From a virus: a stretch of 64,000 bases of DNA. Below are positions 1 to 33,860 of the stretch, piece by piece (position 1 is the first letter of the stretch; each line of letters opens with the position of its first letter). The notes beneath the pieces are model-generated. The model saw only the letters and a program-made list of their open reading frames with translations, ran no database searches and was not told where the DNA came from. Position numbers and translations under genes: made by a program. Location of the stretch: the IMG/VR virus record IMGVR_UViG_3300021964_000017; one strand, written 5' to 3'.

Positions 1-1153
1 TATCAGCAAGAACAACGTTTAGATCGTTAATACTTAATGTTTGACTATTAACAATTGTTTGTGTGCCTTGAACAGTGAGGTTACCACGAACAACTAATGT
101 ACCAGCATAACCACCATCGGAATCGCCAATCGGTGATGGATCCAATACCATTGTGTTGTTGGATCCATCAGTTTGGATCGTGTTACCATTAATGACGATA
201 TTATCGACAACAACACGACCTGAGCCGTTAGGAGTAATATTGATATCACCATTGAGGTCAGTAGAAGAAAGAGTATTACCATTCAGATCAAGATTGTCTA
301 CCGTTAACCGTGTTAAATCCAGAACATCTGAATCTAGATGAACAATTAAACTCGTCCCACTAGCAACCGTGTGGATGTTCGTCCCGCCAGTAAGAGAAAT
401 AGACTCATTGACAAGATCAATAGATCCAGCCCCACCATCAGTGGATGTGTTTAGAGTTGTTGCGACAGGGACTGTTCCAGCCGAGTCAATATGGCCTCGG
501 TCATCAACTGTAAAAACAGGGATTGCTGTAGCTGAACCGTATGTACCAGCTGTAACACCAGAACTATCGTGGGTGATCGAGACTTTATCTGTCGAGACTG
601 CAGTGGTGATAAAACCATCACCTTCAAAGTCTAGAGTTTCTGTGTCTAGGTCAATGTCATCTGACCCGGTGTCGCCGGTGATGGATAATACCGAGTTTAT
701 CTGTAGACCATCAACATATGCTTTGGTAGCAGCGTCTTGGTTCGACACAGGATCTGTTACATTTGAGATCAAAGATGAACTAGCGTTAATAAACCCTGTT
801 CCGTTTGGATCAAGGACTATGTTACCATTAGTATCTGTAGAACTAATTGTATTGCCATCAATTGTAATATTATCGATGTTTATTACATCAATCTTGCTGT
901 TCGTGTCCACAAGAAGAGCACTTGATGCTGTCAGTGTACCAGGCTGATGATCTATTAAATTAGCAAAGTATTCACCACCAACTGCTACTATTGAGGTCGC
1001 GTTGCCTGAACCATCGTCACCCTTACCAAAGAATAAGCGATCACCTCCATTGTTATACTGACCTGTACCCTGTGAATAAGCTAATTCACCAGTTTTTAAT
1101 GATCCTGGAGCCAATTGGCCTGTCGATCTTTTAATTCTAATAATTGCGGCCAT
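1..1153 (-). CDS. Tail fibre / long virion structural protein (5' part; runs off window start)
   Basis: Not in the ORF track; translated by hand from ATG 1153 (TAATG overlap with upstream stop): MAAIIRIKRSTGQLAPGSLKTGELAYS...DNITIDGNTISSTDTNGNIVLDPNGTG...SNQDAATKAYVD...GVTAGTYGSATAIPVFTVD...GNLTVQGTQTIVNS, all typical tail-fibre motifs. Confidence 0.85.
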   Translation of the reverse strand, partial: MAAIIRIKRSTGQLAPGSLKTGELAYSQGTGQYNNGGDRLFFGKGDDGSGNATSIVAVGGEYFANLIDHQPGTLTASSALLVDTNSKIDVINIDNITIDGNTISSTDTNGNIVLDPNGTGFINASSSLISNVTDPVSNQDAATKAYVDGLQINSVLSITGDTGSDDIDLDTETLDFEGDGFITTAVSTDKVSITHDSSGVTAGTYGSATAIPVFTVDDRGHIDSAGTVPVATTLNTSTDGGAGSIDLVNESISLTGGTNIHTVASGTSLIVHLDSDVLDLTRLTVDNLDLNGNTLSSTDLNGDINITPNGSGRVVVDNIVINGNTIQTDGSNNTMVLDPSPIGDSDGGYAGTLVVRGNLTVQGTQTIVNSQTLSINDLNVVLAD

Positions 1154-1416
1154 TAATAACTGCCTCCGTTTATTTCGTGATTTTCTAGTAACCGTGATGG
1201 TGACCAAAGATTATCGTCTGGATTATACATTAACATACTTCCCACCACTGCCCCAGCAGTGCTTATCCCACTTATGTTTGATATGTCTGCTGCAGAAGCA
1301 GACCCCCTAACTCTCCGTATAGGAGTTCCCACTACTACTTTTTTAACTTGAGTAGTACTACCTACTGCAGCTACTGTCTTGACTGTTGTCCCGGATAATC
1401 CAACTTGTATTGCCAT
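1153..1416 (-). CDS. Small virion/tail-fibre-associated hypothetical protein
   Basis: 87 aa, tightly coupled to neighbours, ends in INGGSY. Confidence 0.6.
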   Translation of the reverse strand: MAIQVGLSGTTVKTVAAVGSTTQVKKVVVGTPIRRVRGSASAADISNISGISTAGAVVGSMLMYNPDDNLWSPSRLLENHEINGGSY

Positions 1417-1423
1417 AATATAT

Positions 1424-1774
1424 CTACTTAGTTACAGAAGGTGTTACGAGGATTTTACCCTCTAACACTCTCTCGATGATATTGTCACCATCACTATCAA
1501 CAAATGCCATCTCTACATCATATACATAACGACCAGCACTTAGTAAATCTGTCTGAGCGTTGGTTAAAGAAAGTGTTGCAATTCCATCTTGAGGACTATC
1601 TACTACAGTGGTAAAAACCGTTGTGTTATCACTATCACTATTATATGTTTTTTTCATCTTAGCATCAATAGTGTGATTCTGCAAATTTCTTGCCGTCCCA
1701 TCTTTAGTGATCAGATGGATCTCAATAGCAACGTCAGCACCTTGATCAATTGTTATATCTTCATATTGAGCCAT
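1424..1774 (-). CDS. Virion structural protein (BppU-like Ig fold, tail-fibre associated)
   Basis: ITIDQGAD...ATLSLTNAQT...GRYVYDVE...RVLEGKILVTPSVT pattern typical of T4-like marine phages; downstream of a late promoter. Confidence 0.75.
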   Translation of the reverse strand: MAQYEDITIDQGADVAIEIHLITKDGTARNLQNHTIDAKMKKTYNSDSDNTTVFTTVVDSPQDGIATLSLTNAQTDLLSAGRYVYDVEMAFVDSDGDNIIERVLEGKILVTPSVTK

Positions 1775-1818
1775 TGTTTTCCCATAGATTGAATATATTC
1801 TTAGTGTTTTCTTAGTGT

Positions 1819-1826
1819 TATTTATA
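1819..1826 (-). promoter_or_regulatory. T4-type late promoter TATAAATA
   Basis: Exact consensus in the intergenic gap, 45 nt upstream of the 1774 start. Confidence 0.8.
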
Positions 1827-1876
1827 AGAAAAAAATGCTCTACAATTAAGCATTAATCAGTTTTCCTTCGTGTATA

Positions 1877-2836
1877 TCAAATTCTATATTGATCCATTGT
1901 AAATGTTGATCCTGTCAATCGGTTATAATCAGCGTCAAAGTTAGACCAAACCAAAGCCTCTGGTGCATCATATAACATATCACAGTTTTTACAATAATCT
2001 ATAGAATCAAACTCATGCATCTCATGTGCTTTTCTTAGTTTATTATATTCATCTCCATACCAAATTTCTTCTACTGTTTGATGAGACAGATGACCTAAAA
2101 CTGCTTTGCTATCCTGTCCAAGAACCATACAACATGGGACAACAGCCCCTTCTCTTCCTCCAATACCTCCAGCTCTTACAATTAGATCTGGAGAGAAAGG
2201 TCGTCCACAGCTACGTTTCTTTTTACCAACCCTCCAGTCAACATTAAGCTGACCAGACCAGTTATGCATTTTCCAAATTGAAGCTTTGATACCTGGCACG
2301 TAGTCAATCCAATTTCTTCTGTAAGATTCCACTTCGTAATTAACTCTATTGTTATCTAATATAAGGTGGTATGATCCTATACTACCACCATATTCAATAG
2401 CAGCATTAGCATTATCCATAACATCAAAGAAAGCATCTTTACTCATCTGCTCTTCATATAGTTTAGGAGTGTACCCTGTTACTGATATTCGAGCAAAGTG
2501 CATACCAGCATCAATTGTTCTTTTCATAAGATCATCTTTAAACCAAAAGCCGTTTGTAATGAACGACATCTTGAATCCTTTATCTGTACCAGCTTTTACA
2601 AAGTCAGGCAACTTCTTATTCATTGTAGGCTCACCCGACCCTTCTAAGTATATTTCTTCAACATCTGAATCTTGAAGCTGATCCAATATGTTTAAGAACA
2701 TCTGATAATTCATCATTCTTTTAAATGATTTTTCTCTACCATTATCGAAAGAATGAGGGCAAAATTGACAACTATAGTTGCATGATCCACATATCTCTAT
2801 AACTGCTTTGCTTATTGGTAATTTTACCGTTGCCAT
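1877..2836 (-). CDS. Radical SAM protein with SPASM/twitch domain
   Basis: CNYSCQFC (CxxxCxxC), GSGEPT, C-terminal SCGRPF...VPCC...YCKNC. Confidence 0.9.
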   Translation of the reverse strand: MATVKLPISKAVIEICGSCNYSCQFCPHSFDNGREKSFKRMMNYQMFLNILDQLQDSDVEEIYLEGSGEPTMNKKLPDFVKAGTDKGFKMSFITNGFWFKDDLMKRTIDAGMHFARISVTGYTPKLYEEQMSKDAFFDVMDNANAAIEYGGSIGSYHLILDNNRVNYEVESYRRNWIDYVPGIKASIWKMHNWSGQLNVDWRVGKKKRSCGRPFSPDLIVRAGGIGGREGAVVPCCMVLGQDSKAVLGHLSHQTVEEIWYGDEYNKLRKAHEMHEFDSIDYCKNCDMLYDAPEALVWSNFDADYNRLTGSTFTMDQYRI

Positions 2837-3360
2837 ATCTGTATTCCTGGTTTATTATAGAGACGAGCAATGTGATACCAAGATGTATCGGATCCTACAT
2901 ATAGCTTACATCTCTGTATCTGTCTAACTTTACTTATAACCTGTGACGCGCTTTCAAAGTTTCTTGAGTCTCCAAGATCAATAACATTCTCCATTTCAAC
3001 TTCAACTTCAAGAATTTTTACCTGATGGTGTGGTTTATCTGATGAGAATTGCGATCCTAATATCCAAGAAGACACAACATGGTTTTCTTGATTGTCATAA
3101 GATGCAAGATAGTCTTTCATAAGATGTCTTATTTGATGATTAGTCAGTCCAGGATCAAAGTCTTCTTCTCCGTTGTCTCCAACATAAAGAGTGTTTATGT
3201 TATTAAACATAAAATTGTATACAGGCATATATTCATACACTTCATCAATTAGACCTTGAGGTAAGTAAGAAAGATCACCATCAAAGAATGCATCTGCGTA
3301 AATGGCTCTTTTCAGATTCAACCAAACAGCTCCTTTAAACATTTTTCCATTCCTTTTCAA
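2824..3360 (-). CDS. Hypothetical protein, GT9/heptosyltransferase-like C-terminal lobe
   Basis: CKLYVGSDTSWYHIARLYNKP resembles the GT9 'vg.DSG..HlA.a...P' motif. Confidence 0.5.
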   Translation of the reverse strand: MKRNGKMFKGAVWLNLKRAIYADAFFDGDLSYLPQGLIDEVYEYMPVYNFMFNNINTLYVGDNGEEDFDPGLTNHQIRHLMKDYLASYDNQENHVVSSWILGSQFSSDKPHHQVKILEVEVEMENVIDLGDSRNFESASQVISKVRQIQRCKLYVGSDTSWYHIARLYNKPGIQIWQR

Positions 3361-3847
3361 AAATACTAGTTGCCTCTTGCTCTGTAATGTTATATAAATC
3401 TAACCACTTCAGTCCAGTTAATTCACTTTTATACCAATCATATGCATCCTGTTTAGACCCTAAGGTTACATAATCATCCCAATCAATTAGGTATGGTTTG
3501 TTATCACTTGTTTGATAAATTATATTGTAGTGTTGAAGATCCCGTTTTGACCAATCATATCCTAACGAATCAATTAATGTCAAATAGTTAGATATGTTTT
3601 CACTATAACCTTTAAGGTTTACAGGTTTGTGATCAATGTATCGTTGAGTGACGACATAACAATCATCCCTCGATTCTTCTGAAACAAAAAGTTCTGGTTG
3701 TGCTATCTTCATAAGCCGTGTAGCAAACTTTACATCATCAATAAAGTCTGTAGTAAAGTAATGCTTTTCCACATAAAGATAATCTTTGTTAACAATCAGG
3801 TGAGATCTACCCAGTAGGTACTCACCTTCTTCTAGTGTTATTTTCAA
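3335..3847 (-). CDS. Small kinase-like (PKL fold) protein
   Basis: KRDLQHYNII (catalytic loop) and YLIDWD (DFG-equivalent); TTG start overlapping upstream TGA. Confidence 0.6.
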   Translation of the reverse strand: MKITLEEGEYLLGRSHLIVNKDYLYVEKHYFTTDFIDDVKFATRLMKIAQPELFVSEESRDDCYVVTQRYIDHKPVNLKGYSENISNYLTLIDSLGYDWSKRDLQHYNIIYQTSDNKPYLIDWDDYVTLGSKQDAYDWYKSELTGLKWLDLYNITEQEATSIFEKEWKNV

Positions 3848-3960
3848 TCTTCATTCTCATAGATAAACGTGTGGTCCTGTTGTTCTTTCTTTTTGAAGAA
3901 AGACTTAACACGATATATAAAAAACTTTATTCTATACTTTATATTCTTTGTAATTCTCAT
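3844..3960 (-). CDS. 38-aa basic peptide (MRITKNIKYRIKFFIYRVKSFFKKKEQQDHTFIYENED)
   Basis: Below ORF-track cutoff; fills the only gap in the operon, and its stop overlaps the next start (TTGA). Confidence 0.55.
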   Translation of the reverse strand: MRITKNIKYRIKFFIYRVKSFFKKKEQQDHTFIYENED

Positions 3961-4711
3961 TAAACATCTCCGCTAATTTTTTGTGTCCTTGTTTGTTTGG
4001 ATGCGCGTCGCCATTGCCTACTCTATCTTCAGTAGTTAGATTTTTATCAAAGTAATACCCACCTAGGCTGGGTACAAACGGCCATCCAATAAGATCTATC
4101 TCATTTGAACTATCCATAATATCGAAGTAGTCGCTATTCAACAATTCTTTTGTTATTGTGTTTCTTGTTGACTTATTAAAACCAGCCAACGGTTGAAGCA
4201 TTTGGAATACATGTAATCTAACTCCTCGCTGTTTGCAAAGCTGTTGTAGAATATAGATATCTCTTAATGTATCATCAATCATTGTTTTAATCGATAATTG
4301 AGTATTGAAGATAGCCTTTATTTGAGATTCTTCGTTACCAGTTAGCCTTTCAAGGGTTTGAATGTCCCTTTGGCATATTCGATTTTGTCTTTTTGCATAG
4401 AGAGTATCTTTATTGCGATCATCCACCCCATTAAAGATTTGAGGATTGAATGCTCTACCTCTAATAGAGAATCTTACCCATTGACTCAATGCTATAATTA
4501 TTCTATCAACGTTGGAATGTTTTAATAATGCATCAACAGCATTTCTAATTATTAAATCGTTACCTATCCCCGATTCAGAAACATTAATAACTTTATCGTC
4601 GAAGGATAGCTGATCAGCCCATATTTTCCATGGGGCTTCTATTGATACTCCTGGTTCAATTAAAACTCTTAGATTGTTTTTACTAAAACTATCACCTGAT
4701 ATAATTATCAC
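3932..4711 (-). CDS. SGNH/GDSL hydrolase-like protein
   Basis: GDSFS block I, GIGND, C-terminal DAHPN (DxH). Confidence 0.8.
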   Translation of the reverse strand: MIIISGDSFSKNNLRVLIEPGVSIEAPWKIWADQLSFDDKVINVSESGIGNDLIIRNAVDALLKHSNVDRIIIALSQWVRFSIRGRAFNPQIFNGVDDRNKDTLYAKRQNRICQRDIQTLERLTGNEESQIKAIFNTQLSIKTMIDDTLRDIYILQQLCKQRGVRLHVFQMLQPLAGFNKSTRNTITKELLNSDYFDIMDSSNEIDLIGWPFVPSLGGYYFDKNLTTEDRVGNGDAHPNKQGHKKLAEMFNENYKEYKV

Positions 4712-5471
4712 AATAAGCCTCGTATATTTTATTAGCTATCATTTCGTGACCTCTATCATTGGGGTGACTATCTTCTGGTCCAAATGATTTATCAGTTTCC
4801 TTAATAAGATCATATATCGTACTACCACCCAAAGATTTAATTGCAGGCCAATTGACAAACGTTTCATTGTCTATATGATAAAAAAGATTTTCGTTCAGCA
4901 AAGTTTGAACAACATCTTTAACAGGAGATGTATCTACAACATATTCTATAGGACTGATTGCTTGAATAAAAATATAGTTTATATTGTTAGAACTACAGTA
5001 GTTCTGTATAACATATATGTTTGTTAACCAATCGTTTATTGATTTGCTCATATATCTATTCCACATATCTTGTTCAACAATATACTTTCCTAAAACAATT
5101 GCTGGCTCAATCATTTTTTTATATTTGTTGACTTTATGTACAGAGTTGTTGTAATGTCCAATAGGATCAATGCTGACGTCTTTTGTGAATCCGGTTTTGT
5201 TTATTGTAGACTCCCAATGAGCCACTCTACCAGCATTGGTCCAAGCTATGCAAACACAGTCAGGATTACCATTGACAGCAACGTAATTAAAAAAATCTCT
5301 TGTAATGAAATTATTGCTAGCACCGCAATAAGCTCCATTATAAAGCTGCCAGTCATCACCTAGTTTCTTTTTTAAAATTTCTGGCCAACATGTTGTCAAT
5401 TTTTCTAGATAATTTTTAGACCAGTAGTCCTTATCGGTAAAGCTATCGCCACAACAATATAATTTCTTCAA
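4692..5471 (-). CDS. SGNH/GDSL hydrolase-like protein (tandem paralog)
   Basis: GDSFT, GASN, DSHPN. Confidence 0.8.
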   Translation of the reverse strand: MKKLYCCGDSFTDKDYWSKNYLEKLTTCWPEILKKKLGDDWQLYNGAYCGASNNFITRDFFNYVAVNGNPDCVCIAWTNAGRVAHWESTINKTGFTKDVSIDPIGHYNNSVHKVNKYKKMIEPAIVLGKYIVEQDMWNRYMSKSINDWLTNIYVIQNYCSSNNINYIFIQAISPIEYVVDTSPVKDVVQTLLNENLFYHIDNETFVNWPAIKSLGGSTIYDLIKETDKSFGPEDSHPNDRGHEMIANKIYEAYCDNYIR

Positions 5472-6784
5472 AACACCTTTACTCCATACAGCTTTTCAAA
5501 ACCTTGTGCTTGCTTTATGTTATCAACCATAGGTTTACCTTTTACATTCAAAGAAGTGTTTAGTAACATTGGACACCGAGTTTGTTCATACCACTCTTCG
5601 AGTATAGGCCTTATGATAGACTTGCAGTCAGATTTTACTATTTGAACTCTTGCTGTACCATCAACATGAGTAACACTTTTATGGTCATGCTTTGCTTTGG
5701 CTACATACTGCATGTATTCATTCATTGGTCCTTCGAAATATTCATCAGCAAATTCTTCCAAGATTGCAGGCGCAAATGGTCGAAATTTTTGTCGTTGTTT
5801 AATTTGGTTAACTGTATCCTTAATATCTCGTCTAGGGTCAGCAATAAGGCTACGATTGCCAAGGGCACGAGGGCCAAACTCAGCACGGCCATTTGCAATC
5901 CCGCAATAGTAATTATTAATAAGATAATCAACAACTTCTTTAACATTTATATCTTTCTTTATATCTGTACCTAAGTAAGGATCAATCCAATTTAATTTGA
6001 CGTCTAAATAAGCTGCAGCTGCACCTAAAGAAGAACCTGCATCTCCAGGGTTAGGAAAAATCCACACATGATCAAACATGGGCTTAATCTTTGTATTAGC
6101 AACACAGTTAAGAGCAACTCCACCACCATAGCACAGATATCTGGAGTATGATCTTGCCCTTTTCATAATCTTAATTATTTCTTTTTCGAGGTATTCTTGC
6201 GCACTAGCAGCCAAAGTATTTTTATCTACCGCAGGCATATGCAGCCCCCTACAACCCCTATGTAGATTATACTCAGAAAGATGCGAAAGGTCAACAGGTG
6301 AAGACCCATATGCGGCCATTCCCATTAAGATATATTCATCTTCCATAGGCTTTAAACCAACATAATCTGTAATTGCTGAGTAAAATAATCCTAAAGATTT
6401 AGGATATCTCATTGACCATTTCTTCTTTTTGTTGTACCATATAGAAGCTGTATCCCATTCACCTATAGCGTCTATAACAACGCAAACAGGCTCTTCAGCG
6501 AATGGTCTGGTGTAATAGGCAGCAGATGCATGTGACCAATGATGATCGATATAAGCGTCGTGTTTATCTCTGGTAACCCACCGTTGACCATATAACATTC
6601 TTCTTATATTTTTTTTAATGGGCTTCTCATAAAAGACAGTAAACCCATCTACATTAGTATGAAGATTTCTATCATTCTTTTTTCTTGAGTGCCGCTCGCT
6701 ATGATGAGCTTCAACAATATCTTGCCCTTCTAAATAGCAGTAAGCAGCATCGTGAAACCCATAAGACAATCCAAAAGTAGTCAT
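5468..6784 (-). CDS. Carbamoyltransferase (NodU/CmcH/TobZ family)
   Basis: HDAA, HHWSHASAAYY, GGVALNC, GRAEFGPRALGNRS, FRPFAP, HVDGTARVQ, LLNTSLN. Confidence 0.95.
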   Translation of the reverse strand: MTTFGLSYGFHDAAYCYLEGQDIVEAHHSERHSRKKNDRNLHTNVDGFTVFYEKPIKKNIRRMLYGQRWVTRDKHDAYIDHHWSHASAAYYTRPFAEEPVCVVIDAIGEWDTASIWYNKKKKWSMRYPKSLGLFYSAITDYVGLKPMEDEYILMGMAAYGSSPVDLSHLSEYNLHRGCRGLHMPAVDKNTLAASAQEYLEKEIIKIMKRARSYSRYLCYGGGVALNCVANTKIKPMFDHVWIFPNPGDAGSSLGAAAAYLDVKLNWIDPYLGTDIKKDINVKEVVDYLINNYYCGIANGRAEFGPRALGNRSLIADPRRDIKDTVNQIKQRQKFRPFAPAILEEFADEYFEGPMNEYMQYVAKAKHDHKSVTHVDGTARVQIVKSDCKSIIRPILEEWYEQTRCPMLLNTSLNVKGKPMVDNIKQAQGFEKLYGVKVF

Positions 6785-6794
6785 AGTATATCCA

Positions 6795-7700
6795 ATGAAA
6801 AGATTAGTTTACAGTATTTATATTGACATTCCCAAAGACCTGTTAGATCCTCAGCCACCACACCATGGAGAGACAGAGGATAAAAACCTTAAAGCAAAAC
6901 GTCAGTTTGCTGAACACTATCCGTGGTTGTTACAAAAACAAATGGAATATGCAGATACCATTGGAGCTGAGTATAAACATTTTACATACGATGAGAAGTA
7001 CCAAAATCTAAGGGAATGGTATAACACGTCGTATCCATTTATAACTGAATATAATATTGTAAACTTTTACAAGATTCATCTAATGTATGAACTGGCCGGC
7101 CAGTATGACGAAATACTTTACCTTGATCTGGATGTCTTGCCAGTAACCAAAGAAAACTTCTTTGAAGCTCATGATCTATCCAAAGGAATAGCAATCAAGA
7201 AAAACTCTCATGGGATGTTTATGAATAAAGATTTTATAAAGTATAGAGAAGATCTTTATGAGAGAAAAGGTGAGCCTGGTGGGAGTATAAGGAGTCCAAT
7301 GGCTAAGTGGTGGAACTCAAAGGCTCTGTGTCTGGAATACGGTAATCCTATAGATGATATACCAGTTTACAATACCGGTATCGTGGGGTTTAACAAATAC
7401 TGGCTAGACAAACTAGAATTCTTTGAAGATTTTGAAGAAACGCTTTATGAGATGAAAGAGCTGTGTGAAGATGAGCATACCATGTATCCAAAGTTTGCAC
7501 AGGCTCTATTTGGTTATGACAATGAGACTATCTGGGGATTCAAAGCTCATATGAATGATGTTCCATCAATATGGTTAGATGGAAGATGGCACACGTTTCT
7601 TGATAAGATGACAATTATTCCTAGTAAGTCTAAGTTGGTTCATATTATCAACAAGAGTTTTGATGAAGTGAGAGACTGGTATGAAAAGAATAATCTTTAG
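6795..7700 (+). CDS. GT-A fold glycosyltransferase
   Basis: YDEILYLDLDV (DxD), YNTG, DNET, W-H...LVHIINK. Confidence 0.8.
   Translation: MKRLVYSIYIDIPKDLLDPQPPHHGETEDKNLKAKRQFAEHYPWLLQKQMEYADTIGAEYKHFTYDEKYQNLREWYNTSYPFITEYNIVNFYKIHLMYELAGQYDEILYLDLDVLPVTKENFFEAHDLSKGIAIKKNSHGMFMNKDFIKYREDLYERKGEPGGSIRSPMAKWWNSKALCLEYGNPIDDIPVYNTGIVGFNKYWLDKLEFFEDFEETLYEMKELCEDEHTMYPKFAQALFGYDNETIWGFKAHMNDVPSIWLDGRWHTFLDKMTIIPSKSKLVHIINKSFDEVRDWYEKNNL
6815..6822 (-). promoter_or_regulatory. T4-type late promoter TATAAATA for the carbamoyltransferase operon
   Basis: Exact consensus 31 nt upstream of the 6784 start, lying inside the divergent GT gene. Confidence 0.65.
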
Positions 7701-8475
7701 CATATACGGAGATAATGTCAACAATGTTGGTGAAAGTGTAACAGATTATAAATCAAATAACTTTCGTGCATATAAAGAACAGTTGGTTAAGTGCAAACAA
7801 GTGTATGCAAGTAAATGTAAAGCCGACTTTGTTTTAATAGATAGTTCTCTGAACAACTTCGTAGATATACAATTTGAAAAGATAAGATTGTTAGAAGAGT
7901 TTGCTAACTCATACGATGAGGTTTTGTATTTAGACTTTGATGTTATTCCAAACTTTTCGGCTAGAAGTATTTTTGATAGTGTTGATACTTCAAAGCTGTG
8001 CATGCATCCTCTCAATAGACCGCTTAATGGTTTTTATTTGAGAGGCGTGTTACTATCCGATTCATTAGACTCACAAAGCATGTATGTTAAGACATGCTCC
8101 AAAAAATCTATGCTACTGCTAGAGGGAATAAATGGTAATGATTTAACATACAACACCGGAGTAGTGCTTGGCAACTCTGAGATTATTAAACAAGTTAACT
8201 TTACAGAGCAGCTAGATGTTATGCATGAGTTGCTAGAAGAAGCATGTGAAGACAGTCTTTATCCACCAGAGATATCAAGACACTTTGTCCCCAACAATGA
8301 AGTTTATATTAGCTACCTCGTTGAAAAGAACAACATCCCTCATCATGATCTATCGATGAACTGGAATTTTATTTTAGATGATGTTGAAGAATATGCCCCA
8401 GCGTCTGCCGAACTAATTCATGCCGTTAATAAAAACTTTGATATGTTTAAAATGCTTTTGGATTACAATGCTTAG
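7681..8475 (+). CDS. GT-A fold glycosyltransferase (tandem paralog)
   Basis: YDEVLYLDFDV, YNTGV, NNEV, WNF...LIHAVNK; colinear with the upstream gene. Confidence 0.8.
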   Translation: MKRIIFSIYGDNVNNVGESVTDYKSNNFRAYKEQLVKCKQVYASKCKADFVLIDSSLNNFVDIQFEKIRLLEEFANSYDEVLYLDFDVIPNFSARSIFDSVDTSKLCMHPLNRPLNGFYLRGVLLSDSLDSQSMYVKTCSKKSMLLLEGINGNDLTYNTGVVLGNSEIIKQVNFTEQLDVMHELLEEACEDSLYPPEISRHFVPNNEVYISYLVEKNNIPHHDLSMNWNFILDDVEEYAPASAELIHAVNKNFDMFKMLLDYNA

Positions 8476-9043
8476 AGTTATTTGTGTATGCACAGGAAAT
8501 AAGTTTAAACGATGGTATGTCGACAACTTGAAATATCAGGTCGACAAATACTCTAAGTTGCAGTATGATGAATTTGCAGTTATAACAGACGATAACTATG
8601 ATGGTGTCTTTAACAAACTACAGATGTTTGATAGGTATAGAGATGGACAGAATATTTACTTTGACTTGGATGTTCTAATAAAAGGAGACTGTAATAGCTT
8701 CCTCAAAAAGGATTTCACATTATGTTTTGCTCATTGGAGAGATGAACACCACACTAGAATTAATAGCTCTATAATATCTTGGTGTGGGGATGTGTCCCAC
8801 ATATATGATATGTTCCAACAAGACCCAGATTATTATATGACAAAATACTACCGTGGTATTGACCAAATGTTATATGAAAATATAGATTACAAGGTTTTTC
8901 CTAATATTGATACTTATTGTTCTTATCAAACAGTTACAGAAGAATTACCTTATAGTGTATATCTTTTTAATCAGAGGCATCAGAAGATGCTTGAGCCTGG
9001 CTGGCATCAAAAATTTCAATTGCCGCTCTCAGAGCATCAATAG
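8468..9043 (+). CDS. Small GT8-like glycosyltransferase
   Basis: MLRVICVCTGNKF..YVDNL, FNKLQMF, YFDLDVLI, INSSIISW, GIDQ; start reassigned to ATG 8468. Confidence 0.75.
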   Translation: MLRVICVCTGNKFKRWYVDNLKYQVDKYSKLQYDEFAVITDDNYDGVFNKLQMFDRYRDGQNIYFDLDVLIKGDCNSFLKKDFTLCFAHWRDEHHTRINSSIISWCGDVSHIYDMFQQDPDYYMTKYYRGIDQMLYENIDYKVFPNIDTYCSYQTVTEELPYSVYLFNQRHQKMLEPGWHQKFQLPLSEHQ

Positions 9044-9491
9044 GAGTATTGGACCTACGGATTTTCTTTTTAAGATCTTTGTCCTTACATTGCTTAACGA
9101 ACTCTTTCTCAAACAATTGAAGTTTAAAGAAGAACAATTTTTCTTTATGGAGTTTTTCATCATAAGGATCAAAGATTAGATCGATAAGGATCTTATGAAA
9201 GTCACTAGTACCACCATCATCTAAGTTAACTAACCAGCCTTTTTCTTTAGCAATTTCAATAACTTGATCTTTAAATGCTTGTTCAGATTCCTTGGTATAT
9301 GTCCAAGTGTTTTCATGAATCTCGTCTACAGTCACATGCTCGAGCAGTTCCTTCCACTGAGGATCTTCATCTTTTGTTTCCATAATGATTTCTATAAGCG
9401 CTCCTGGATTGTCGGGGTCTTCCCAGTAACTCATTACAGAATCTCTTTGTTCATTTCTAAAGTATGCATTAATGTATCTAAAATTATTCAT
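8967..9491 (-). CDS. Hypothetical protein
   Basis: 174 aa; N-terminus resembles that of 11127..11822. Confidence 0.65.
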   Translation of the reverse strand: MNNFRYINAYFRNEQRDSVMSYWEDPDNPGALIEIIMETKDEDPQWKELLEHVTVDEIHENTWTYTKESEQAFKDQVIEIAKEKGWLVNLDDGGTSDFHKILIDLIFDPYDEKLHKEKLFFFKLQLFEKEFVKQCKDKDLKKKIRRSNTPIDALRAAIEIFDASQAQASSDASD

Positions 9492-9795
9492 TTGATTCTT
9501 CCTCTACTGTGCACCACTGTATACATTGCCTGAGCGCTTTATCATTAGACCATGATTCTATTAACTCATCCCACCACGGATGTTCATTAATAGAATCAAA
9601 GTCATTTTTAAAAATATTTAGTTCATCTTTATAATCATTATATTGATGCATTATATGCTGGTTTTCTCTATAACCTGATTTTTTTCCTGAAGCTCGACTT
9701 TGATAGTCATTGTTTACTAAGTAGCAACAGGGATATACTTGTCCATCGATATTGATTACCATCTGATTAAGCTCACGCCATTTACATTTAATCAT
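9484..9795 (-). CDS. Stand-alone SPASM/twitch Fe-S domain protein
   Basis: IKC...INIDGQVYPCCY...QCIQWC. Confidence 0.75.
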   Translation of the reverse strand: MIKCKWRELNQMVINIDGQVYPCCYLVNNDYQSRASGKKSGYRENQHIMHQYNDYKDELNIFKNDFDSINEHPWWDELIESWSNDKALRQCIQWCTVEEESNE

Positions 9796-10528
9796 TTAAG
9801 TACACCACTCCTGACGGCATTTTTTTTCTATATATTTCTTCAATAGAGTGTTTAGTTACCATATCAGTAATAGTAGCAGCTTCTAATATATCTTGCTGTC
9901 CATATTCGTTTATGAAATTAAAACTATCGTTTGTAAATGTGGGAGACGAATAAAATCTATCTGTAACAAGCCATTTGTGCAGATGCGCTCCATACGATTT
10001 AACTAAGTCAGATATTTCTGCAATATGCTTTTCGTTATGTTTGAAAACAATAGTTAGAGCATGAACTGTAGCGGATGTGCTTGAGAGCTCTTTCATGTGA
10101 TTCAACACTTTACTTAGATCTGTTTTTCGTCTATACTTAGAATGCATTTCCTGAGTACTACCATCAACAGCAAATACTACTGTAAGTTGTTCTTTCCCAA
10201 CACATCCCAGTTCCCACCAAAACTCTTCATCTCTCATAGCACCGTTTGTATCCATAACAATTTTAGACTTACTGTTATCAGTTATATATTGAACTATGGG
10301 AAGAATGTCTTTGTTCATGGCTGGATCACCCCAAGTACCACAGAAGTTATATTCCTGGTGACGAGAAGGAACAGGGAAAACTTTTTTAAAAGTTTCTAAG
10401 TTCCACTGGAGAAGTGGTAACCAGTCTGCTTTACCAAGTCCATTTGGATTGGTTCTATGACACTGAGGGCAAGCTGCATTACAATATGTTGAAACATCTA
10501 GCCATACATTAGGATCTCTTAACCACAT
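9788..10528 (-). CDS. Radical SAM core domain protein
   Basis: CNAACPQC, FCGTWGDP, TNG, FAVDG. Confidence 0.9.
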   Translation of the reverse strand: MWLRDPNVWLDVSTYCNAACPQCHRTNPNGLGKADWLPLLQWNLETFKKVFPVPSRHQEYNFCGTWGDPAMNKDILPIVQYITDNSKSKIVMDTNGAMRDEEFWWELGCVGKEQLTVVFAVDGSTQEMHSKYRRKTDLSKVLNHMKELSSTSATVHALTIVFKHNEKHIAEISDLVKSYGAHLHKWLVTDRFYSSPTFTNDSFNFINEYGQQDILEAATITDMVTKHSIEEIYRKKMPSGVVYLND

Positions 10529-11127
10529 TAAATAACTCCAATCACCATATATCTATCATGGTTTTCAAAGGACATTGTACCACTGTAGTTAATATTTGAT
10601 AGAGGTGTCTTTATTACAAACTCCTCAAGACTATCAACACAATTTACATGATCGTCTACAGAATAGTAGTTATTAGATTGAACAGCCACTATTGTTCCTT
10701 TGTTTAATGATCTGTAGATATGCTCAACGTATTTCTGTTCGATGTGTTCTATACTAGTGTTAATGTAAACTTTACAGTCAGGAACATTTAAAGTTGTATC
10801 TCTTGTTTCAAAGTTTATATTATATTCATTAAACAGATATTCGCCCATTATTTTACATCCTGGGTCAATGTCAGAATTCACTATTGTATTGTCTGGAAAT
10901 TCTTTTCTAAGAAGATATGATGTAAGTCCTAGCCAACCAGCCGCAACATGTATGTCTTCCATACCAATGTAATCTGAAAGGCAGTTAACTAACCACTGCT
11001 TACCAGACCAATGCTTTGGTCCTAGTCCATTGCCAACTTCTTTTATTCTACTTAGGTTTAATTCGTTGGGATTATCATAGATATATTCAACGAGCTTAAA
11101 ACCTCGTTTTAAAATTTCATCATCCAT
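10528..11127 (-). CDS. Class I SAM-dependent methyltransferase-like protein
   Basis: HVAAGWLG motif I, SDIDP, INTSIEH, QSNNY...HVNC, RYMVIG. Confidence 0.75.
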   Translation of the reverse strand: MDDEILKRGFKLVEYIYDNPNELNLSRIKEVGNGLGPKHWSGKQWLVNCLSDYIGMEDIHVAAGWLGLTSYLLRKEFPDNTIVNSDIDPGCKIMGEYLFNEYNINFETRDTTLNVPDCKVYINTSIEHIEQKYVEHIYRSLNKGTIVAVQSNNYYSVDDHVNCVDSLEEFVIKTPLSNINYSGTMSFENHDRYMVIGVI

Positions 11128-11822
11128 TATATAATTTTGTTGAGCACTCCAACAACTGTCTTAGCTGTAGTTTTCTTATCGGACATTTTCTTTACCATCT
11201 CAACAACGTTTTCTTGATTATTGACAACCGTAAGAAATTCCACAATATCTTTTATTGACTTTTCCATATCTTCTGTCGATACACCAGAGGTTATGAAAGA
11301 GTTAATCTTAGTGATTTGATCATTGATTTGTCCATCTCTTTTTTTAGAAAGAGATTCGTGCATAACTACCTTTTTCTGAAGTTCTTTAATAACATTCTCA
11401 GTATGCAGCTGAGCTGCAATAGCTTTTTTCTTCCAGTCTTCCATTCTCTCACGTTCACGCTCAGCATGAACCCTAGCTTCTAAAGAGTGCTTTTGCCACC
11501 TATCTACTTCAGCCTGATATCTTTCAGCTTCTGCCTGATGTCTTTCAGCTTCTGCCTGACACCTATCCAGTTCACCTTGATACAGATCCGCAGCCGCAGT
11601 TTTAGCAACCTCCACAACACTGGCCATTTGTTGTCTTTTAAATTCAGCTGTAGTATCTAAAATCTTATCATCTGTCCAACCTAGATCTTTTAGCGCTTTG
11701 TGCTGCACTGTGTCTGGCTGAATGTACTCTTCAATAATACCATCTTCTTCAGATTGATGCAACACTAAAATAGTGTCTTGTCGATCATTTGTATATCTTG
11801 CTTCTATGATATCTTTATACAT
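11127..11822 (-). CDS. Coiled-coil hypothetical protein with heptad repeat expansion
   Basis: YQGELDR-CQAEAER-HQAEAER-YQAEVDR. Confidence 0.65.
   Translation of the reverse strand: MYKDIIEARYTNDRQDTILVLHQSEEDGIIEEYIQPDTVQHKALKDLGWTDDKILDTTAEFKRQQMASVVEVAKTAAADLYQGELDRCQAEAERHQAEAERYQAEVDRWQKHSLEARVHAERERERMEDWKKKAIAAQLHTENVIKELQKKVVMHESLSKKRDGQINDQITKINSFITSGVSTEDMEKSIKDIVEFLTVVNNQENVVEMVKKMSDKKTTAKTVVGVLNKII
11499..11583. repeat. 21-bp-period tandem repeat
   Basis: tctttcagcttctgcctga at 11520 and 11541 with degenerate flanking copies. Confidence 0.8.
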
Positions 11823-11831
11823 AATTTTTTC

Positions 11832-12752
11832 CTAAACCTGATAAATTCTTAGATAGTATGTGTCTGCTGTCACAGCAGTACCGTTGGGAAACTCTTGAGC
11901 TCTATAGTCGTCAGCAGTTACAAATCTTGTTTGATAATTACCAGAACCGTTTAAGATTGTGTTTGACATACCAGATCCTCTGTTGGTTCCAGTACCATTT
12001 AGACTATATCTGATTCTTGATCCTGCTACCTCTGATGCTACATGTCTCACACAGTTTTTAAGAATTGCATCAAAGCTAGCTGTTGAGTATTCTTGTAAGT
12101 CGTTATCTGATCTGATAAAAACAGGCGGCGAGTATGATATGGCCGATCCTGCATTTACTCTAAACAAATAATAGTTAGTAACAGTAAATGGTTGATCTGT
12201 TGCTTCTATGATCCCACCTGCTGTATAAGCTCCTGTGTTAGCTCTTGTATCGGAAAATACTGGTGTCGAACTAATGAGTGTACTACCAGCTAGACTGGTG
12301 CTTGTGTGTATACGATAAGTTCCTTGTCTATCATTACCATCTGTAAGAATATCAATTTCAGGATATATGAATGTATCATATATATCAGTCAAAGTCATAG
12401 CCTGGATATTTCCATTATTATTAAAAACTGGAAATGCTCTATTGCTCGTGTCAGCAGTTTCTGATGTATTCTCTGTCGATTGATTTATTCTAGAATAGTT
12501 AACAGTAACTGTTCCAGGCTCAGCTGTCTCAGCTTCGGTAGCAAATCTATCAACTCTTGTAATACCGGCTCCAGCTGTTTTTCTGGTATCACTTATTGTA
12601 CCTAAATTACCACCAGAAGATACAACACTAAGATCTACTGACGGATCAGTACCATAAAGATATCTCACCTGAGATTTTATCTCGTTTATCTGTGTCGTCG
12701 TCATCTCTTGGAGATTGCCCCCATTGAGACGAAGCGGAGTCCGTACTGCCAT
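11832..12752 (-). CDS. Virion structural protein (tail-fibre associated)
   Basis: Thr/Ser/Gly rich; internal repeats (GNLQEMT / GNIQAMT / NDLQEYS; NYYLFR / TYYLRI); coupled to the fibre gene. Confidence 0.7.
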   Translation of the reverse strand: MAVRTPLRLNGGNLQEMTTTQINEIKSQVRYLYGTDPSVDLSVVSSGGNLGTISDTRKTAGAGITRVDRFATEAETAEPGTVTVNYSRINQSTENTSETADTSNRAFPVFNNNGNIQAMTLTDIYDTFIYPEIDILTDGNDRQGTYRIHTSTSLAGSTLISSTPVFSDTRANTGAYTAGGIIEATDQPFTVTNYYLFRVNAGSAISYSPPVFIRSDNDLQEYSTASFDAILKNCVRHVASEVAGSRIRYSLNGTGTNRGSGMSNTILNGSGNYQTRFVTADDYRAQEFPNGTAVTADTYYLRIYQV

Positions 12753-12754
12753 TA

Positions 12755-14095
12755 TTAAGATCCTGCGCCATATAACGTCTTTATAGCTGTTCCTGCTGAG
12801 TTATATATGATAAGTGTTACTACGCTGGCTAGCTCTGCAGACCCAACAGCATCATCTGCTATTTTAGCTTGAGTGACAGAGTTTGAAGCCAGGTGTTCCG
12901 CATCAATTGATCCTGCGGCGTAATGCTCTGAGTTGATAGCGTCATCAGCAATCTTAGCACCGGTGACTACATCATTTGCCAAAGTTGTAGCGAAAGAGAC
13001 GTTACCTAAATTTGTTACAGTTCCTGCACCAGTTACTGCTCCTGTTAACGTAATACTAAAATCACCAACATCAAAATCGAGTGTGTTATCATCATCTTGA
13101 TAAGTTACAGCAATTCCTGACTCTGAGTTGGATGTAACCATTGCACCCACAGTATCAGAGACAAATTCAGATAGACCTGTAATGTTCCCAGTAGTGTGGT
13201 TGTGACTGTTATCAGCAACTGCGACAGTTAGGGTGGCATCACCTAGGTTTGTGAATGTAGCACTACCAGTTGCATCACCATCTAATGTTAGAGTTGGATC
13301 TGCCGTTGTAGCGATACTAACACTACCCAGATTAGTCATTGTACCAGAGCCAGTTACTGCCCCAGTAAGTGTAATCACTGGATCTTTTGCTAGTGATACA
13401 GCACCAGAGCTTACAGAGAAGTCTGCGGAGTCGAACGATGCAATACCCTTGTTGGATGTTGTTGCATCTTCACCCGAAATAGAACCAGAGGAAATATCAA
13501 TACCTTCTCCAGCAGAGAAGTGAGCTCTAACTTCAGTAGCGCTAGGACCTGTGTAAGTAAACACACCAGAAGCCTGATTGTATGAGAACGATCCATCGCC
13601 ACCAGCATCTGTAGCGCTTACTTTATTACGGAAATCTAGATCACTATCAATCCGATCATCAAGTTCGTTAATTGCCGCAACAAGAGTATTCTTTGCTGTT
13701 GTATCAAGATCCGTCAGATTACCAATTTGAGCCAGCTGTTCACTTGACCCAGAATCGAGTAGATCTGTTTGAGTCTTCAATTCATTCAATGCAGACATAA
13801 CAGTTGTTGCTGTGAACGTCGCGCCAAAAGCTCTAGTAGGTTCTATTCTTGCTACTAGTCTGTCTCTGTCAGAATCAAGTTCATTAACCGCTCCGGTGAG
13901 ATTCTTGGCACCTGTTGTTAGGTTAGTGTGTGGCCTTGCTCCAATGTCAGAGTCTAGCTCATTAATACCACCAACAATATCTGAGTCTACTGTCGTTGTA
14001 AGATTTCCTCTCCAACCGACATCAGCAGAAACAATGTTAACTTTCTCTTGAAAAGTTTTTATTGTATCACTTATATTTACAATCTGCTTTGGCAT
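12755..14095 (-). CDS. Tail fibre protein
   Basis: Repeats L.T.AK.L..A(I/V)NELD and ITLTGAVTG.GT.TNLG; GDGSFSYNQASGVFTYTGPS; VT.AKIADDA. Confidence 0.85.
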   Translation of the reverse strand: MPKQIVNISDTIKTFQEKVNIVSADVGWRGNLTTTVDSDIVGGINELDSDIGARPHTNLTTGAKNLTGAVNELDSDRDRLVARIEPTRAFGATFTATTVMSALNELKTQTDLLDSGSSEQLAQIGNLTDLDTTAKNTLVAAINELDDRIDSDLDFRNKVSATDAGGDGSFSYNQASGVFTYTGPSATEVRAHFSAGEGIDISSGSISGEDATTSNKGIASFDSADFSVSSGAVSLAKDPVITLTGAVTGSGTMTNLGSVSIATTADPTLTLDGDATGSATFTNLGDATLTVAVADNSHNHTTGNITGLSEFVSDTVGAMVTSNSESGIAVTYQDDDNTLDFDVGDFSITLTGAVTGAGTVTNLGNVSFATTLANDVVTGAKIADDAINSEHYAAGSIDAEHLASNSVTQAKIADDAVGSAELASVVTLIIYNSAGTAIKTLYGAGS

Positions 14096-33345: not shown

Positions 33346-33857
33346 TGGCTTATTCAGGAAAGTATATTGTAAAACACCGGAGCAAATACAATGGTGACGC
33401 GGATAAGGTGATTTATCGCTCTATGTGGGAAAGACATTGCTTCTATTGGTGTGATATGAATGCTAATATTAAAAGTTGGTCTAGTGAAGAAGTAGTCATT
33501 CCATATCGTTGGGATGTTGATAAACGCATGCATCGTTACTTTATGGATCTCAAGATTACTTATAAGACTGGCAAGACAATACTTGTAGAGATCAAACCAG
33601 ACAAAGAAACCAAACCTCCAAAGAGACCCGACAAGTCTAAACGGTATATCAACGAAGCAATGACATATGTAAAGAATATGAACAAGTGGGAAGCTGCCAA
33701 TGAGTATGCTAAAGATCGGGGATGGGACTTTCAAATCTGGACTGAAAAGACTTTGACTGAAATGGGAATTATGCCCACACAATCAAAGAAGGGAAGTTTA
33801 AAACCTCTCAAGCCGCTAAAGCCTTTTCGAAAGAAAAAGCCTAAGAAAAAGGTATAA
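33345..33857 (+). CDS. gp4: Head completion nuclease gp4
   Basis: MAYSGKY...KY.GD...IYRS.WE, WSSEE..IPY, HRYF.D, EIKP, N..KWEAA. Confidence 0.95.
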   Translation: MAYSGKYIVKHRSKYNGDADKVIYRSMWERHCFYWCDMNANIKSWSSEEVVIPYRWDVDKRMHRYFMDLKITYKTGKTILVEIKPDKETKPPKRPDKSKRYINEAMTYVKNMNKWEAANEYAKDRGWDFQIWTEKTLTEMGIMPTQSKKGSLKPLKPLKPFRKKKPKKKV

Positions 33858-33860
33858 ATA
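33853..33860 (+). promoter_or_regulatory. Late promoter TATAAATA
   Basis: Exact consensus overlapping the gp4 stop, 5 nt before the gp2 ATG. Confidence 0.75.

Follow-up and report, generated by a model that had tools for sequence, protein, structure and literature searches.

The IMG/VR virus record IMGVR_UViG_3300021964_000017 was analysed as one stretch of 64,000 nucleotides (nt), here called the window. Its structural genes resemble those of T4-like marine myophages of the Kyanoviridae, and positions 1877-11127 hold an island of enzyme genes that probably makes a tailored glycan. The minus-strand left arm of the island encodes a radical S-adenosylmethionine (SAM) enzyme (rSAM1), an orphan protein, a kinase-fold protein, a micropeptide, two SGNH-fold proteins (SGNH1 and SGNH2) and a carbamoyltransferase. 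A plus-strand middle operon, divergent from the carbamoyltransferase gene, encodes the glycosyltransferases GTA1, GTA2 and GTA3. The minus-strand right arm continues from the fibre genes with a coiled-coil protein, a methyltransferase (MT), the radical SAM core rSAM2, a free SPASM protein and an acidic protein. This gene map combines searches of Pfam, PHROG and NCBIfam with homologue alignments built from related contigs, PDB profile searches and one usable fold. A prediction made earlier from the letters of the window (the original prediction) had listed two radical SAM/SPASM systems, a 'GT9-like lobe', a kinase, two SGNH proteins, a carbamoyltransferase, three GT-A enzymes and a methyltransferase. 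All are confirmed here except the GT9-like lobe; the micropeptide of 38 amino acids (aa) had been overlooked.

The carbamoyltransferase (5468-6784, minus strand) is a NodU/TobZ-type O-carbamoyltransferase of 438 aa with a shortened N-domain. Carbam_trans_C scores 157.2 bits and Carbam_trans_N 129.9 bits (Pfam cut-offs 27 and 24), and the protein matches PHROG 1601 with an E-value of 7e-82. When it was aligned to NovN, GdmN and TobZ from the PDB, the motifs HHxxH, GGVALN, DAGSS, GPRALGNRS and THVDG were intact. The metal-binding HHxxH and the GPRALGNRS/THVDG nucleotide/carbamoyl-phosphate motifs are invariant in 21 homologues. With both domains over the cut-offs and the catalytic motifs intact, the NodU-type assignment stands. 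TobZ/NodU-type enzymes O-carbamoylate sugars and sugar-like hydroxyls and use carbamoyl phosphate and ATP.

Next to it lie the genes for two paralogues, SGNH2 (4692-5471, minus strand) and SGNH1 (3932-4711, minus strand), the latter an SGNH-fold esterase or acyltransferase without a signal peptide. A 17-sequence alignment retains the catalytic Ser, Gly, Asn and Asp-x-x-His: conservation of S8, G48, N51, D235 and H237 is complete or no lower than 90%. Hidden Markov model (HMM) support is weak, with SGNH2 matching DUF6071 and Lipase_GDSL_2 below the cut-offs, and SGNH1 has a weak PDB match to a GDSL-like protein. The conserved catalytic residues confirm both as SGNH proteins. Relatives were collected by a carbamoyltransferase search of IMG/VR, which gave 187 relatives, of which 80 loci were retained (L-numbers below); window proteins were compared with them by tblastn. 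In about 25 loci an SGNH gene lies directly 3' of the carbamoyltransferase gene.

The micropeptide gene (3844-3960, minus strand; 38 aa) overlaps with the 3' end of SGNH1 on one side and the beginning of the kinase gene on the other. The N-half of its product is basic; the C-terminal part carries [FY]IYE and then an acidic tail. The same position in at least 12 diverged loci encodes a peptide of 32-69 aa with [FY]-I-Y-E and acidic residues, and I33 and Y34 are invariant among the aligned homologues. In a six-frame search of all loci for small open reading frames (ORFs) with [FY]IY[ED], 27 of the 29 found were the micropeptide, on the carbamoyltransferase strand, mostly 0.7-2.5 kb past the end of that gene. 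The micropeptide has no Pfam match, and none of 13 such peptides matched DUF5989 (PF19451) at E <= 1. It was not found where the carbamoyltransferase is less than 50% identical, nor in the phages Mosig, HTVC008M and C48C1, nor in loci with carbamoyltransferase and rSAM1. In L031 the carbamoyltransferase-SGNH-micropeptide trio stands amid genes for an epimerase/dehydratase, UDP-glucose dehydrogenase, phosphomannomutase, an aminotransferase, and GT4 and GT17-like enzymes, and a Pfam scan of ten larger ORFs there found no radical SAM gene. L032, L029 and L042 gave no tblastn match to the radical SAM genes of the window, a search that would miss diverged ones. Because of the trio in L031, where no radical SAM gene was found, and the pattern of absences, we assign the micropeptide to the carbamoyltransferase/SGNH pair and not to the radical SAM genes.

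The divergent operon starts with GTA1 (6795-7700, plus strand), a GT8-like GT-A glycosyltransferase that scores 18.6 bits against Pfam GT8, under the cut-off of 24.3, and is 40% identical to Mosig_00091. GTA2 (7681-8475, plus strand) is also GT8-like; it reaches 28.6 bits (PF01501, cut-off 24.3) and has a weak LgtC match at the DxD region. Across 17 sequences of GTA1/GTA2, the DxD, NTG and H..K motifs are invariant (D111, D113, N193-T194-G195, H283 and K287). GTA3 (8468-9043, plus strand) is a third DxD (FDLDV) glycosyltransferase-like protein, matching the PHROG 1962 'glycosyltransferase' family (E 8e-5) and 43% identical to Mosig_00094. A start at 8420 was rejected as spurious: homologues begin at MLRVICV and stops lie upstream in L046 and L003, which places the start at 8468. 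The three GT-A enzymes of the earlier list are thus two GT8-like proteins, GTA1 under the cut-off, and a third DxD enzyme with a corrected start.

Both radical SAM systems exceed the Pfam cut-offs, the second being split into two genes. rSAM1 (1877-2836, minus strand) combines a radical SAM domain (57 bits) with a C-terminal SPASM/twitch-like domain (44.5 bits). It has CX3CX2C and five further Cys, and its NCBIfam matches are generic and all sub-threshold. Homologues lie 2-10 kb from the carbamoyltransferase gene in distant loci and in C48C1. rSAM2 (9788-10528, minus strand) is a core without an auxiliary-cluster domain; it scores 30.6 bits in Pfam, above the cut-off, matches PHROG 21308 (E 3e-25), and has only generic SPASM-family matches in NCBIfam. 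The stand-alone SPASM-domain protein (9484-9795, minus strand; 103 aa; 26.5 bits, cut-off 21.5) is encoded by a separate gene that overlaps that of rSAM2. At least seven diverged loci keep the SPASM domain as a separate ORF, so this split is no frameshift artefact. The rSAM1 tail and the free protein each have five Cys (C...G....CC...CxxC or CxxxC), and the full seven-cysteine SPASM motif (two auxiliary clusters) is present in neither. The five-Cys pattern would fit one auxiliary cluster, as in twitch-like domains.

The same unit includes the MT gene (10528-11127, minus strand), which encodes a class-I SAM methyltransferase-like protein with invariant residues that include G67, D88 and TSxEH. 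An 11-sequence profile matches class-I methyltransferase and spermidine synthase folds in the PDB (best E 2e-4), which supports the methyltransferase that had been predicted. Its last gene encodes the conserved acidic protein (8967-9491, minus strand; 174 aa), for which Pfam, PHROG and NCBIfam gave no family match. It is kept 3' of the SPASM gene in L046, L003, L017, L009 and L013, and its Mosig homologue is 33% identical. The GTA3 (plus strand) and acidic protein (minus strand) genes are convergent, and their 3' ends overlap by 77 nt (8967-9043), an overlap also present in L046.

Fibre and baseplate genes lie at each flank, which confirms the flanking fibre genes of the original prediction. 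On the right lie the coiled-coil protein (11127-11822, minus strand, between f_11832 and MT), the conserved 306-aa orphan f_11832 (11832-12752, minus strand), a fibre-like protein (12755-14095) and a VrlC-like protein of 1712 aa (14322-19460), which aligns with Mosig 'VrlC' along 81% of its length at 32% identity; gp8-like and gp6 genes come next. A tail-fibre-assembly-like protein (1424-1774) lies on the opposite flank. The coiled-coil protein and f_11832 join the island to the fibre genes by overlapping stop/start codons, and the MT, rSAM2, SPASM and acidic-protein genes are coupled to the fibre genes in the same manner. f_11832 always adjoins the island; its identity ranges over 34-76% across 11 loci and is 51% for Mosig, and searches of Pfam, PHROG and the PDB, profile searches included, found no relative. 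It contains three internal N-G-x-L/I-Q-x-M-T-like repeats and an invariant DDYRxQEFP motif. The coiled-coil protein, which occurs only in the closest relatives, has tandem AEAERxQ heptad-like repeats. The GC content of the island is 0.34-0.36, compared with 0.40-0.42 in the flanks (right side). No hydrophobic segment or signal peptide was found in any island protein, so all look soluble. A Pfam scan and hydrophobicity check of the island proteins found no flippase, polymerase or transporter.

Two proteins of the left arm are accessory or rare. The kinase-fold protein (3335-3847, minus strand; 170 aa) is a minimal protein-kinase-like or APH-like phosphotransferase in which K28, D103, N108 and D122 are invariant. 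All of its top 50 VIA matches are protein-kinase-like (Z 4.3-6.2; model pLDDT 61), the Foldseek and VIA fold matches include OspG, NleH, APH, YihE and FN3K, and Atlas leads are APH, Kdo, RIO1 and WaaY. The invariant residues and the kinase-like fold of the model support the predicted kinase. The gene is accessory, found in the closest relatives only (five homologue clusters). The orphan (2824-3342, minus strand; 172 aa) has the invariant motifs IDLGDSRNF and GSxxSW. Single-sequence PDB searches of both proteins gave no match.

The orphan had been called a GT9-like lobe, a name we drop after finding no link to GT9 in Pfam, the PDB or a full HMMER search. Neither the protein nor 36 family members matched Pfam, and no PDB match was found by sequence or profile. 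The full HMMER profile search showed the family to be rare (43 representatives among 1.84 billion, nearly all 170-245 aa), with no relative of GT9 length among the 43. The sole GT9 (PF01075) support is a weak Atlas lead in 15% of one cluster, and the AlphaFold2 (AF2) model (pLDDT 47) is unusable. Among the orphan-profile matches P0031/P0022, one is a 2342-aa representative with a C-terminal GSxxSW-type segment repeated 14 times, and one is a 431-aa protein that joins the orphan family to an N-terminal DxD (GT-A-like) part.

The gp6 and the carbamoyltransferase of the window are each about 41% identical to those of Phage C48C1, followed by those of the Pelagibacter phages HTVC008M and Mosig and the OM43 phage Melnitz; a megablast of 12 kb against GenBank phages gave no match, and an exact 44-mer of the window was absent from IMG/VR, so neither collection has a near-identical entry. 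Among the IMG/VR loci, the whole island is kept in L046, L002 and L003, and versions of varied content lie between the same flanks in L007-L009, L013-L015 and L017. On one side the conserved flank consists of f_11832, fibre and VrlC; on the opposite side it is the tail-fibre-assembly-like gene together with a structural protein. A core of carbamoyltransferase, SGNH, MT, GT-A, rSAM2/SPASM and acidic protein stands beside f_11832/fibre/VrlC in L046, L003, L009, L013, L015, L017 and Mosig. It thus persists to Mosig, where carbamoyltransferase identity is only 31%. A single Mosig neighbourhood holds homologues of rSAM2, SGNH, carbamoyltransferase, MT, GTA1, GTA3, the acidic protein, f_11832, a small structural protein, VrlC and gp8. 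Mosig (L082) also has, at 1-5000, a second late-headed operon next to glycan-type genes, with an AspH-like hydroxylase, a fatty-acid-desaturase domain protein, an aminotransferase, an FMN reductase, a peroxiredoxin, a TauD-like dioxygenase and a methylase.

A GT-A profile scan of GTDB genome contigs found only four contigs of metagenome-assembled genomes (MAGs; L083-L086), binned as Woesearchaeota, Rhodobiaceae, Gammaproteobacteria and Rhodobacteraceae. All four carry island genes, L084-L086 also carry f_11832, and L084 carries VrlC. With fibre-module genes aboard, L084-L086 were rejected as bacterial or archaeal homologues and taken as mis-binned phage DNA; L083, a 3.4-kb piece with island genes only, is too short to judge.

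The original prediction described the island as inserted. This is misleading, as the region is conserved and is the host recognition cluster that has been published for pelagimyophages. It was described by Zaragoza-Solas et al. (2020, mSystems; PMC7029224) as a hypervariable island after VrlC that contains fibres, GT8 enzymes, lipopolysaccharide (LPS)-type genes and radical SAM cassettes, and they read it as a means of host O-chain modification. By gene content and position, the island of the window is identified as the enzyme part of that cluster. The Melnitz paper does not discuss the island.

The tripeptide D-S-D was considered as a possible sequon. It occurs at 23 sites (about 2 expected) in the peripheral tail/baseplate proteins of the window (2-1207, 1424-1774, 12755-14095, 14322-19460, 19473-20840 and 21913-22893) and is almost missing from the other ~80 ORFs. 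The idea was rejected, as the enrichment does not track island content (observed and expected sites: L015, 1 and 2.2; L025, 46 and 3.8; L013, 16 and 2.9).

A T4-type late promoter motif, TATAAATA, lies at 6822..6815 on the minus strand, 30 nt 5' of the carbamoyltransferase ATG at 6784. This bears out the earlier claim of an exact late motif that points to the carbamoyltransferase operon. The motif falls within codons 7-10 of the divergent GTA1 gene. Exact copies of TATAAATA number nine in the window (4.8 expected), and 6/9 sites lie 5-44 nt upstream of a same-strand ORF start, mostly before structural genes. Because most copies precede ORF starts, chiefly structural ones, we take TATAAATA to behave as a T4-type late promoter here. 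Its placement is that of a T4-type late -10 element, and late transcription itself is predicted from the sequence.

Similar placements recur among the relatives. Of 55 distinct related loci, 13 have the motif NATAAATA no more than 110 nt upstream of the carbamoyltransferase gene, in contexts that include GT-A codons (L046, L003), an intergenic site (L004), positions right after a terminator hairpin (L018-L024) and others (L078, L080). Exact TATAAATA copies also lie before MT (L009, L017) and SGNH (L085), and in Mosig three overlapping copies head two divergent enzyme operons. Scans for sigma-70 promoters and terminators gave no excess over shuffles, and the literature on cyanomyovirus transcriptomes held nothing usable on carbamoyltransferase timing. 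In two places TATAAATA lies only 5 nt before an annotated start (window 33853-33860, plus strand, ATG 33866; Mosig 4978-4985, ATG 4991), a spacing that suggests either leaderless or very short-leader late mRNAs or mis-called starts.

We infer that the island enzymes form one pathway. A tailored glycan is the best reading of its product because of the constant company of glycosyltransferases and the genes for UDP-glucose dehydrogenase, epimerase/dehydratase, phosphomannomutase and aminotransferases in relatives. We consider this part of the reading probable. In the proposed scheme, GT8-like GT-A enzymes would build a short glycan from host nucleotide sugars, and the glycan would then be edited by O-carbamoylation, methylation, phosphorylation and radical-SAM chemistry. 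The enzymes, soluble and cytoplasmic, would be expressed together with the late (virion) genes. The acceptor would be the phage's own peripheral tail or fibre proteins, modified in the cytoplasm before assembly. Late motifs, coupling to fibre genes, the adjacency of f_11832, soluble enzymes and the lack of export parts in the scans all speak for a virion acceptor.

The original prediction had also proposed a tailored glycan that decorates the virion. The conserved module and the sugar-nucleotide genes of relatives support the glycan; the virion acceptor is a part that we infer, and we put it forward tentatively. The whole scheme, virion acceptor included, is likewise offered as a tentative preference.

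Within this scheme, a relay may operate: the group would first be loaded by the TobZ-type transferase onto the micropeptide's invariant tyrosine, and from there the SGNH proteins would hand it on. A specific form was suggested by analogy with a known acyl-tyrosine shuttle, where the Tyr of an FXYXXF tail passes an acyl group to an SGNH transferase (PMC12148441). Here the TobZ-type enzyme would carbamoylate the micropeptide Tyr, and an SGNH protein would relay the carbamoyl group to an O-glycan on the virion tail late in infection, independently of MBOAT. We regard this form as speculative and, on balance, unlikely.

Several points weigh against the preferred scheme. Among T4-like marine phages, no virion protein is known to be glycosylated. 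GT8 is typically an LPS family. The hypervariable neighbourhood of tail-fibre genes is a known dumping ground for accessory genes, which makes position weak evidence. In HTVC008M (L087), a GT-rSAM-MT-carbamoyltransferase-UDP-glucose dehydrogenase cluster has ribonucleotide reductase genes as neighbours and stands apart from the tail genes, and no TATAAATA was found near it. Tail linkage and late control are therefore not universal. The original claims of late control and of conserved synteny hold to this extent: late motifs recur before island genes in several unrelated arrangements, and linkage to tail genes is conserved in many IMG/VR contigs and Mosig, but HTVC008M has neither.

The promoter evidence has further gaps. 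L007/L009 and L017, which share the arrangement of the window, lose TATAAATA through synonymous changes, and its conservation in L046 and L003 may reflect closeness alone. The plus-strand GT-A operon has no convincing promoter. The sole candidate, TCTAAATA at 6729-6736, was rejected, as it is conserved only where it lies inside carbamoyltransferase codons. Finally, the only published reading of such islands is host O-chain remodelling (PMC7029224).

That reading, applied here, has the enzymes work on host lipid-linked glycans (units of the LPS core, O-chain or capsule) on the cytoplasmic side of the inner membrane, such that the infected surface or its debris would stop binding the same or competing phages. 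It is the published interpretation of the GT8-rich cluster, and the LPS association of GT8, the O-antigen-type sugar-nucleotide genes in relatives and the position of the HTVC008M cluster apart from tail genes all fit it. The basic amphipathic N-half of the micropeptide could also bind membranes. However, the island scans found no membrane-embedded enzyme, initiating polyprenyl-phosphate transferase, flippase or ligase. Known envelope O-acyl SGNH enzymes carry signal peptides, unlike those of the island. DltD and the SGNH domain of OatA act outside the cytoplasm (PMC12148441). Late motifs and fibre coupling are a poor match for exclusion functions. Such functions are usually early, as with T4 imm/sp. 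GT-A relatives were also found only on phage-like contigs, the four MAG matches carrying island genes. We think host-envelope remodelling rather unlikely for this island, and the choice between virion and host envelope stays close.

The invariant I-Y of the micropeptide would also suit a peptide-derived or free small molecule. Here the micropeptide would be a precursor or carrier whose Tyr is modified by a SPASM radical SAM enzyme and then glycosylated, methylated and carbamoylated, in analogy with mycofactocin, pyrroloquinoline quinone (PQQ) and the carbamoylation set sxtI-J-K-L of saxitoxin. SPASM radical SAM enzymes mostly act on peptides. The nearest NCBIfam families are peptide or cofactor maturases, all sub-threshold, and the known saxitoxin set combines a carbamoyltransferase with small proteins and a GDSL protein (PMC2679770). 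Yet the micropeptide travels with carbamoyltransferase and SGNH and not with radical SAM genes, and it is missing from the carbamoyltransferase + rSAM1 loci, Mosig, HTVC008M and C48C1. Pfam scans of the island found no protease, RRE domain or exporter, and the micropeptide gave no DUF5989 match. A peptide product is improbable.

Still less probable is that the genes form no single pathway and were dumped as unrelated accessory genes between fibre genes. The kinase and orphan are confined to the closest loci, rSAM1 comes and goes between relatives, the GC content of the island is below that of its flanks, and the region has been described as hypervariable (PMC7029224). Against this, a seven-family core persists down to 31% carbamoyltransferase identity, and the genes are tightly coupled with overlapping ends.

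Hypermodification of phage DNA with carbamoylated (and glycosylated) hydroxymethyl-pyrimidines can practically be set aside: a phage-type TobZ-family enzyme does make 5-carbamoyloxymethylcytosine, and glycosyltransferases modify DNA in T4, but the carbamoyltransferase for 5-hydroxymethylcytosine (5hmC) co-occurs with a ThyA-like dCMP hydroxymethylase, usually within 3 kb, while on unmodified contigs carbamoyltransferases have glycosyltransferases as company (Yang et al. 2021, PMC8670742), and since no ThyA-like gene (PF00303) was found in the island ORFs, the complete C48C1 genome or four large related contigs, and a late promoter would be the wrong timing for DNA precursors, 5hmC carbamoylation is unlikely here. 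The original prediction held that late timing and position favour virion over DNA modification, and that order stands; it did not settle the choice between virion and host envelope.

Islands of this type are common and have been published before. The present analysis adds a defined conserved core, the recurrence of late motifs and, for this lineage, the micropeptide; it also removes GT9 and DNA as readings. Myophages of the SAR11 type rank with the most abundant large marine phages, and they spend 10-40 kb beside fibre genes on such enzymes. The interpretation of host range, adsorption and superinfection in these phages would depend on whether the enzymes decorate the virion or remodel the host surface. 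If both the tail glycan and the tyrosine relay were true, they would be the first virion glycan of T4-like marine phages and a new route of O-carbamoylation. The trio of carbamoyltransferase, SGNH and micropeptide may also explain puzzling small companions of carbamoyltransferases such as sxtJ and sxtK. The module is testable in a cultured representative, Mosig on HTCC1062.

Compared with known systems, the carbamoyltransferase shares its two-domain architecture and catalytic motifs with TobZ, NovN, GdmN and NodU. It is shorter (438 aa with a shortened N-domain, compared with 570-700 aa) and, unlike them, comes together with SGNH proteins and a micropeptide whose tail carries a tyrosine. The 5hmC system (PMC8670742) belongs to the same enzyme superfamily and also occurs in phage contigs, but its adjacent ThyA-like hydroxymethylase was found neither in the island nor in the relatives scanned.

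For the micropeptide, the likeness to the saxitoxin set and to the acyl-tyrosine shuttle is one of analogy, not membership. In sxtI-sxtJ-sxtK-sxtL a carbamoyltransferase stands beside a very small protein and a GDSL/SGNH protein, as in the window; with SxtK-type proteins only this neighbourhood pattern is common, and the DUF5989 HMM does not match. DltX/PatA systems have a C-terminal Tyr in an F-x-Y context, like the invariant tyrosine here, whereas the final F of FXYXXF is replaced by acidic residues in the micropeptide. The DltX-type peptide has a transmembrane helix and the micropeptide is highly basic. DltX/PatA also needs an MBOAT/AT3 membrane acyltransferase; the island has no membrane protein, and the carbamoyltransferase would fill that role.

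Virion glycosylation has precedents. Chlorovirus capsid glycans are made by virus-encoded soluble glycosyltransferases that modify virion proteins in the cytoplasm, and in 2023 Freeman et al. reportedly described mycobacteriophage virion glycosylation by glycosyltransferase genes that adjoin structural genes. Both systems resemble the window in having soluble glycosyltransferases with methyltransferases beside structural genes; they differ in using other glycosyltransferase families and in lacking carbamoyltransferase, SGNH and radical SAM proteins.

The closest counterpart is the host recognition cluster of pelagimyophages and cyanomyophages, exemplified by genes 00074-00097 of Pelagibacter phage Mosig EXVC030M. 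The carbamoyltransferase, SGNH proteins, micropeptide, conserved core and late promoters are not mentioned in its description (PMC7029224). The window differs from Mosig in its kinase-like protein and 172-aa orphan, which are extra, and in its carbamoyltransferase arm, which is co-oriented with the structural genes, whereas the Mosig arm converges on them. The window and the cluster share a structural region by VrlC in which fibres, GT8 enzymes, LPS-type genes and radical SAM genes stand together, the gp14 side lying outside the window.

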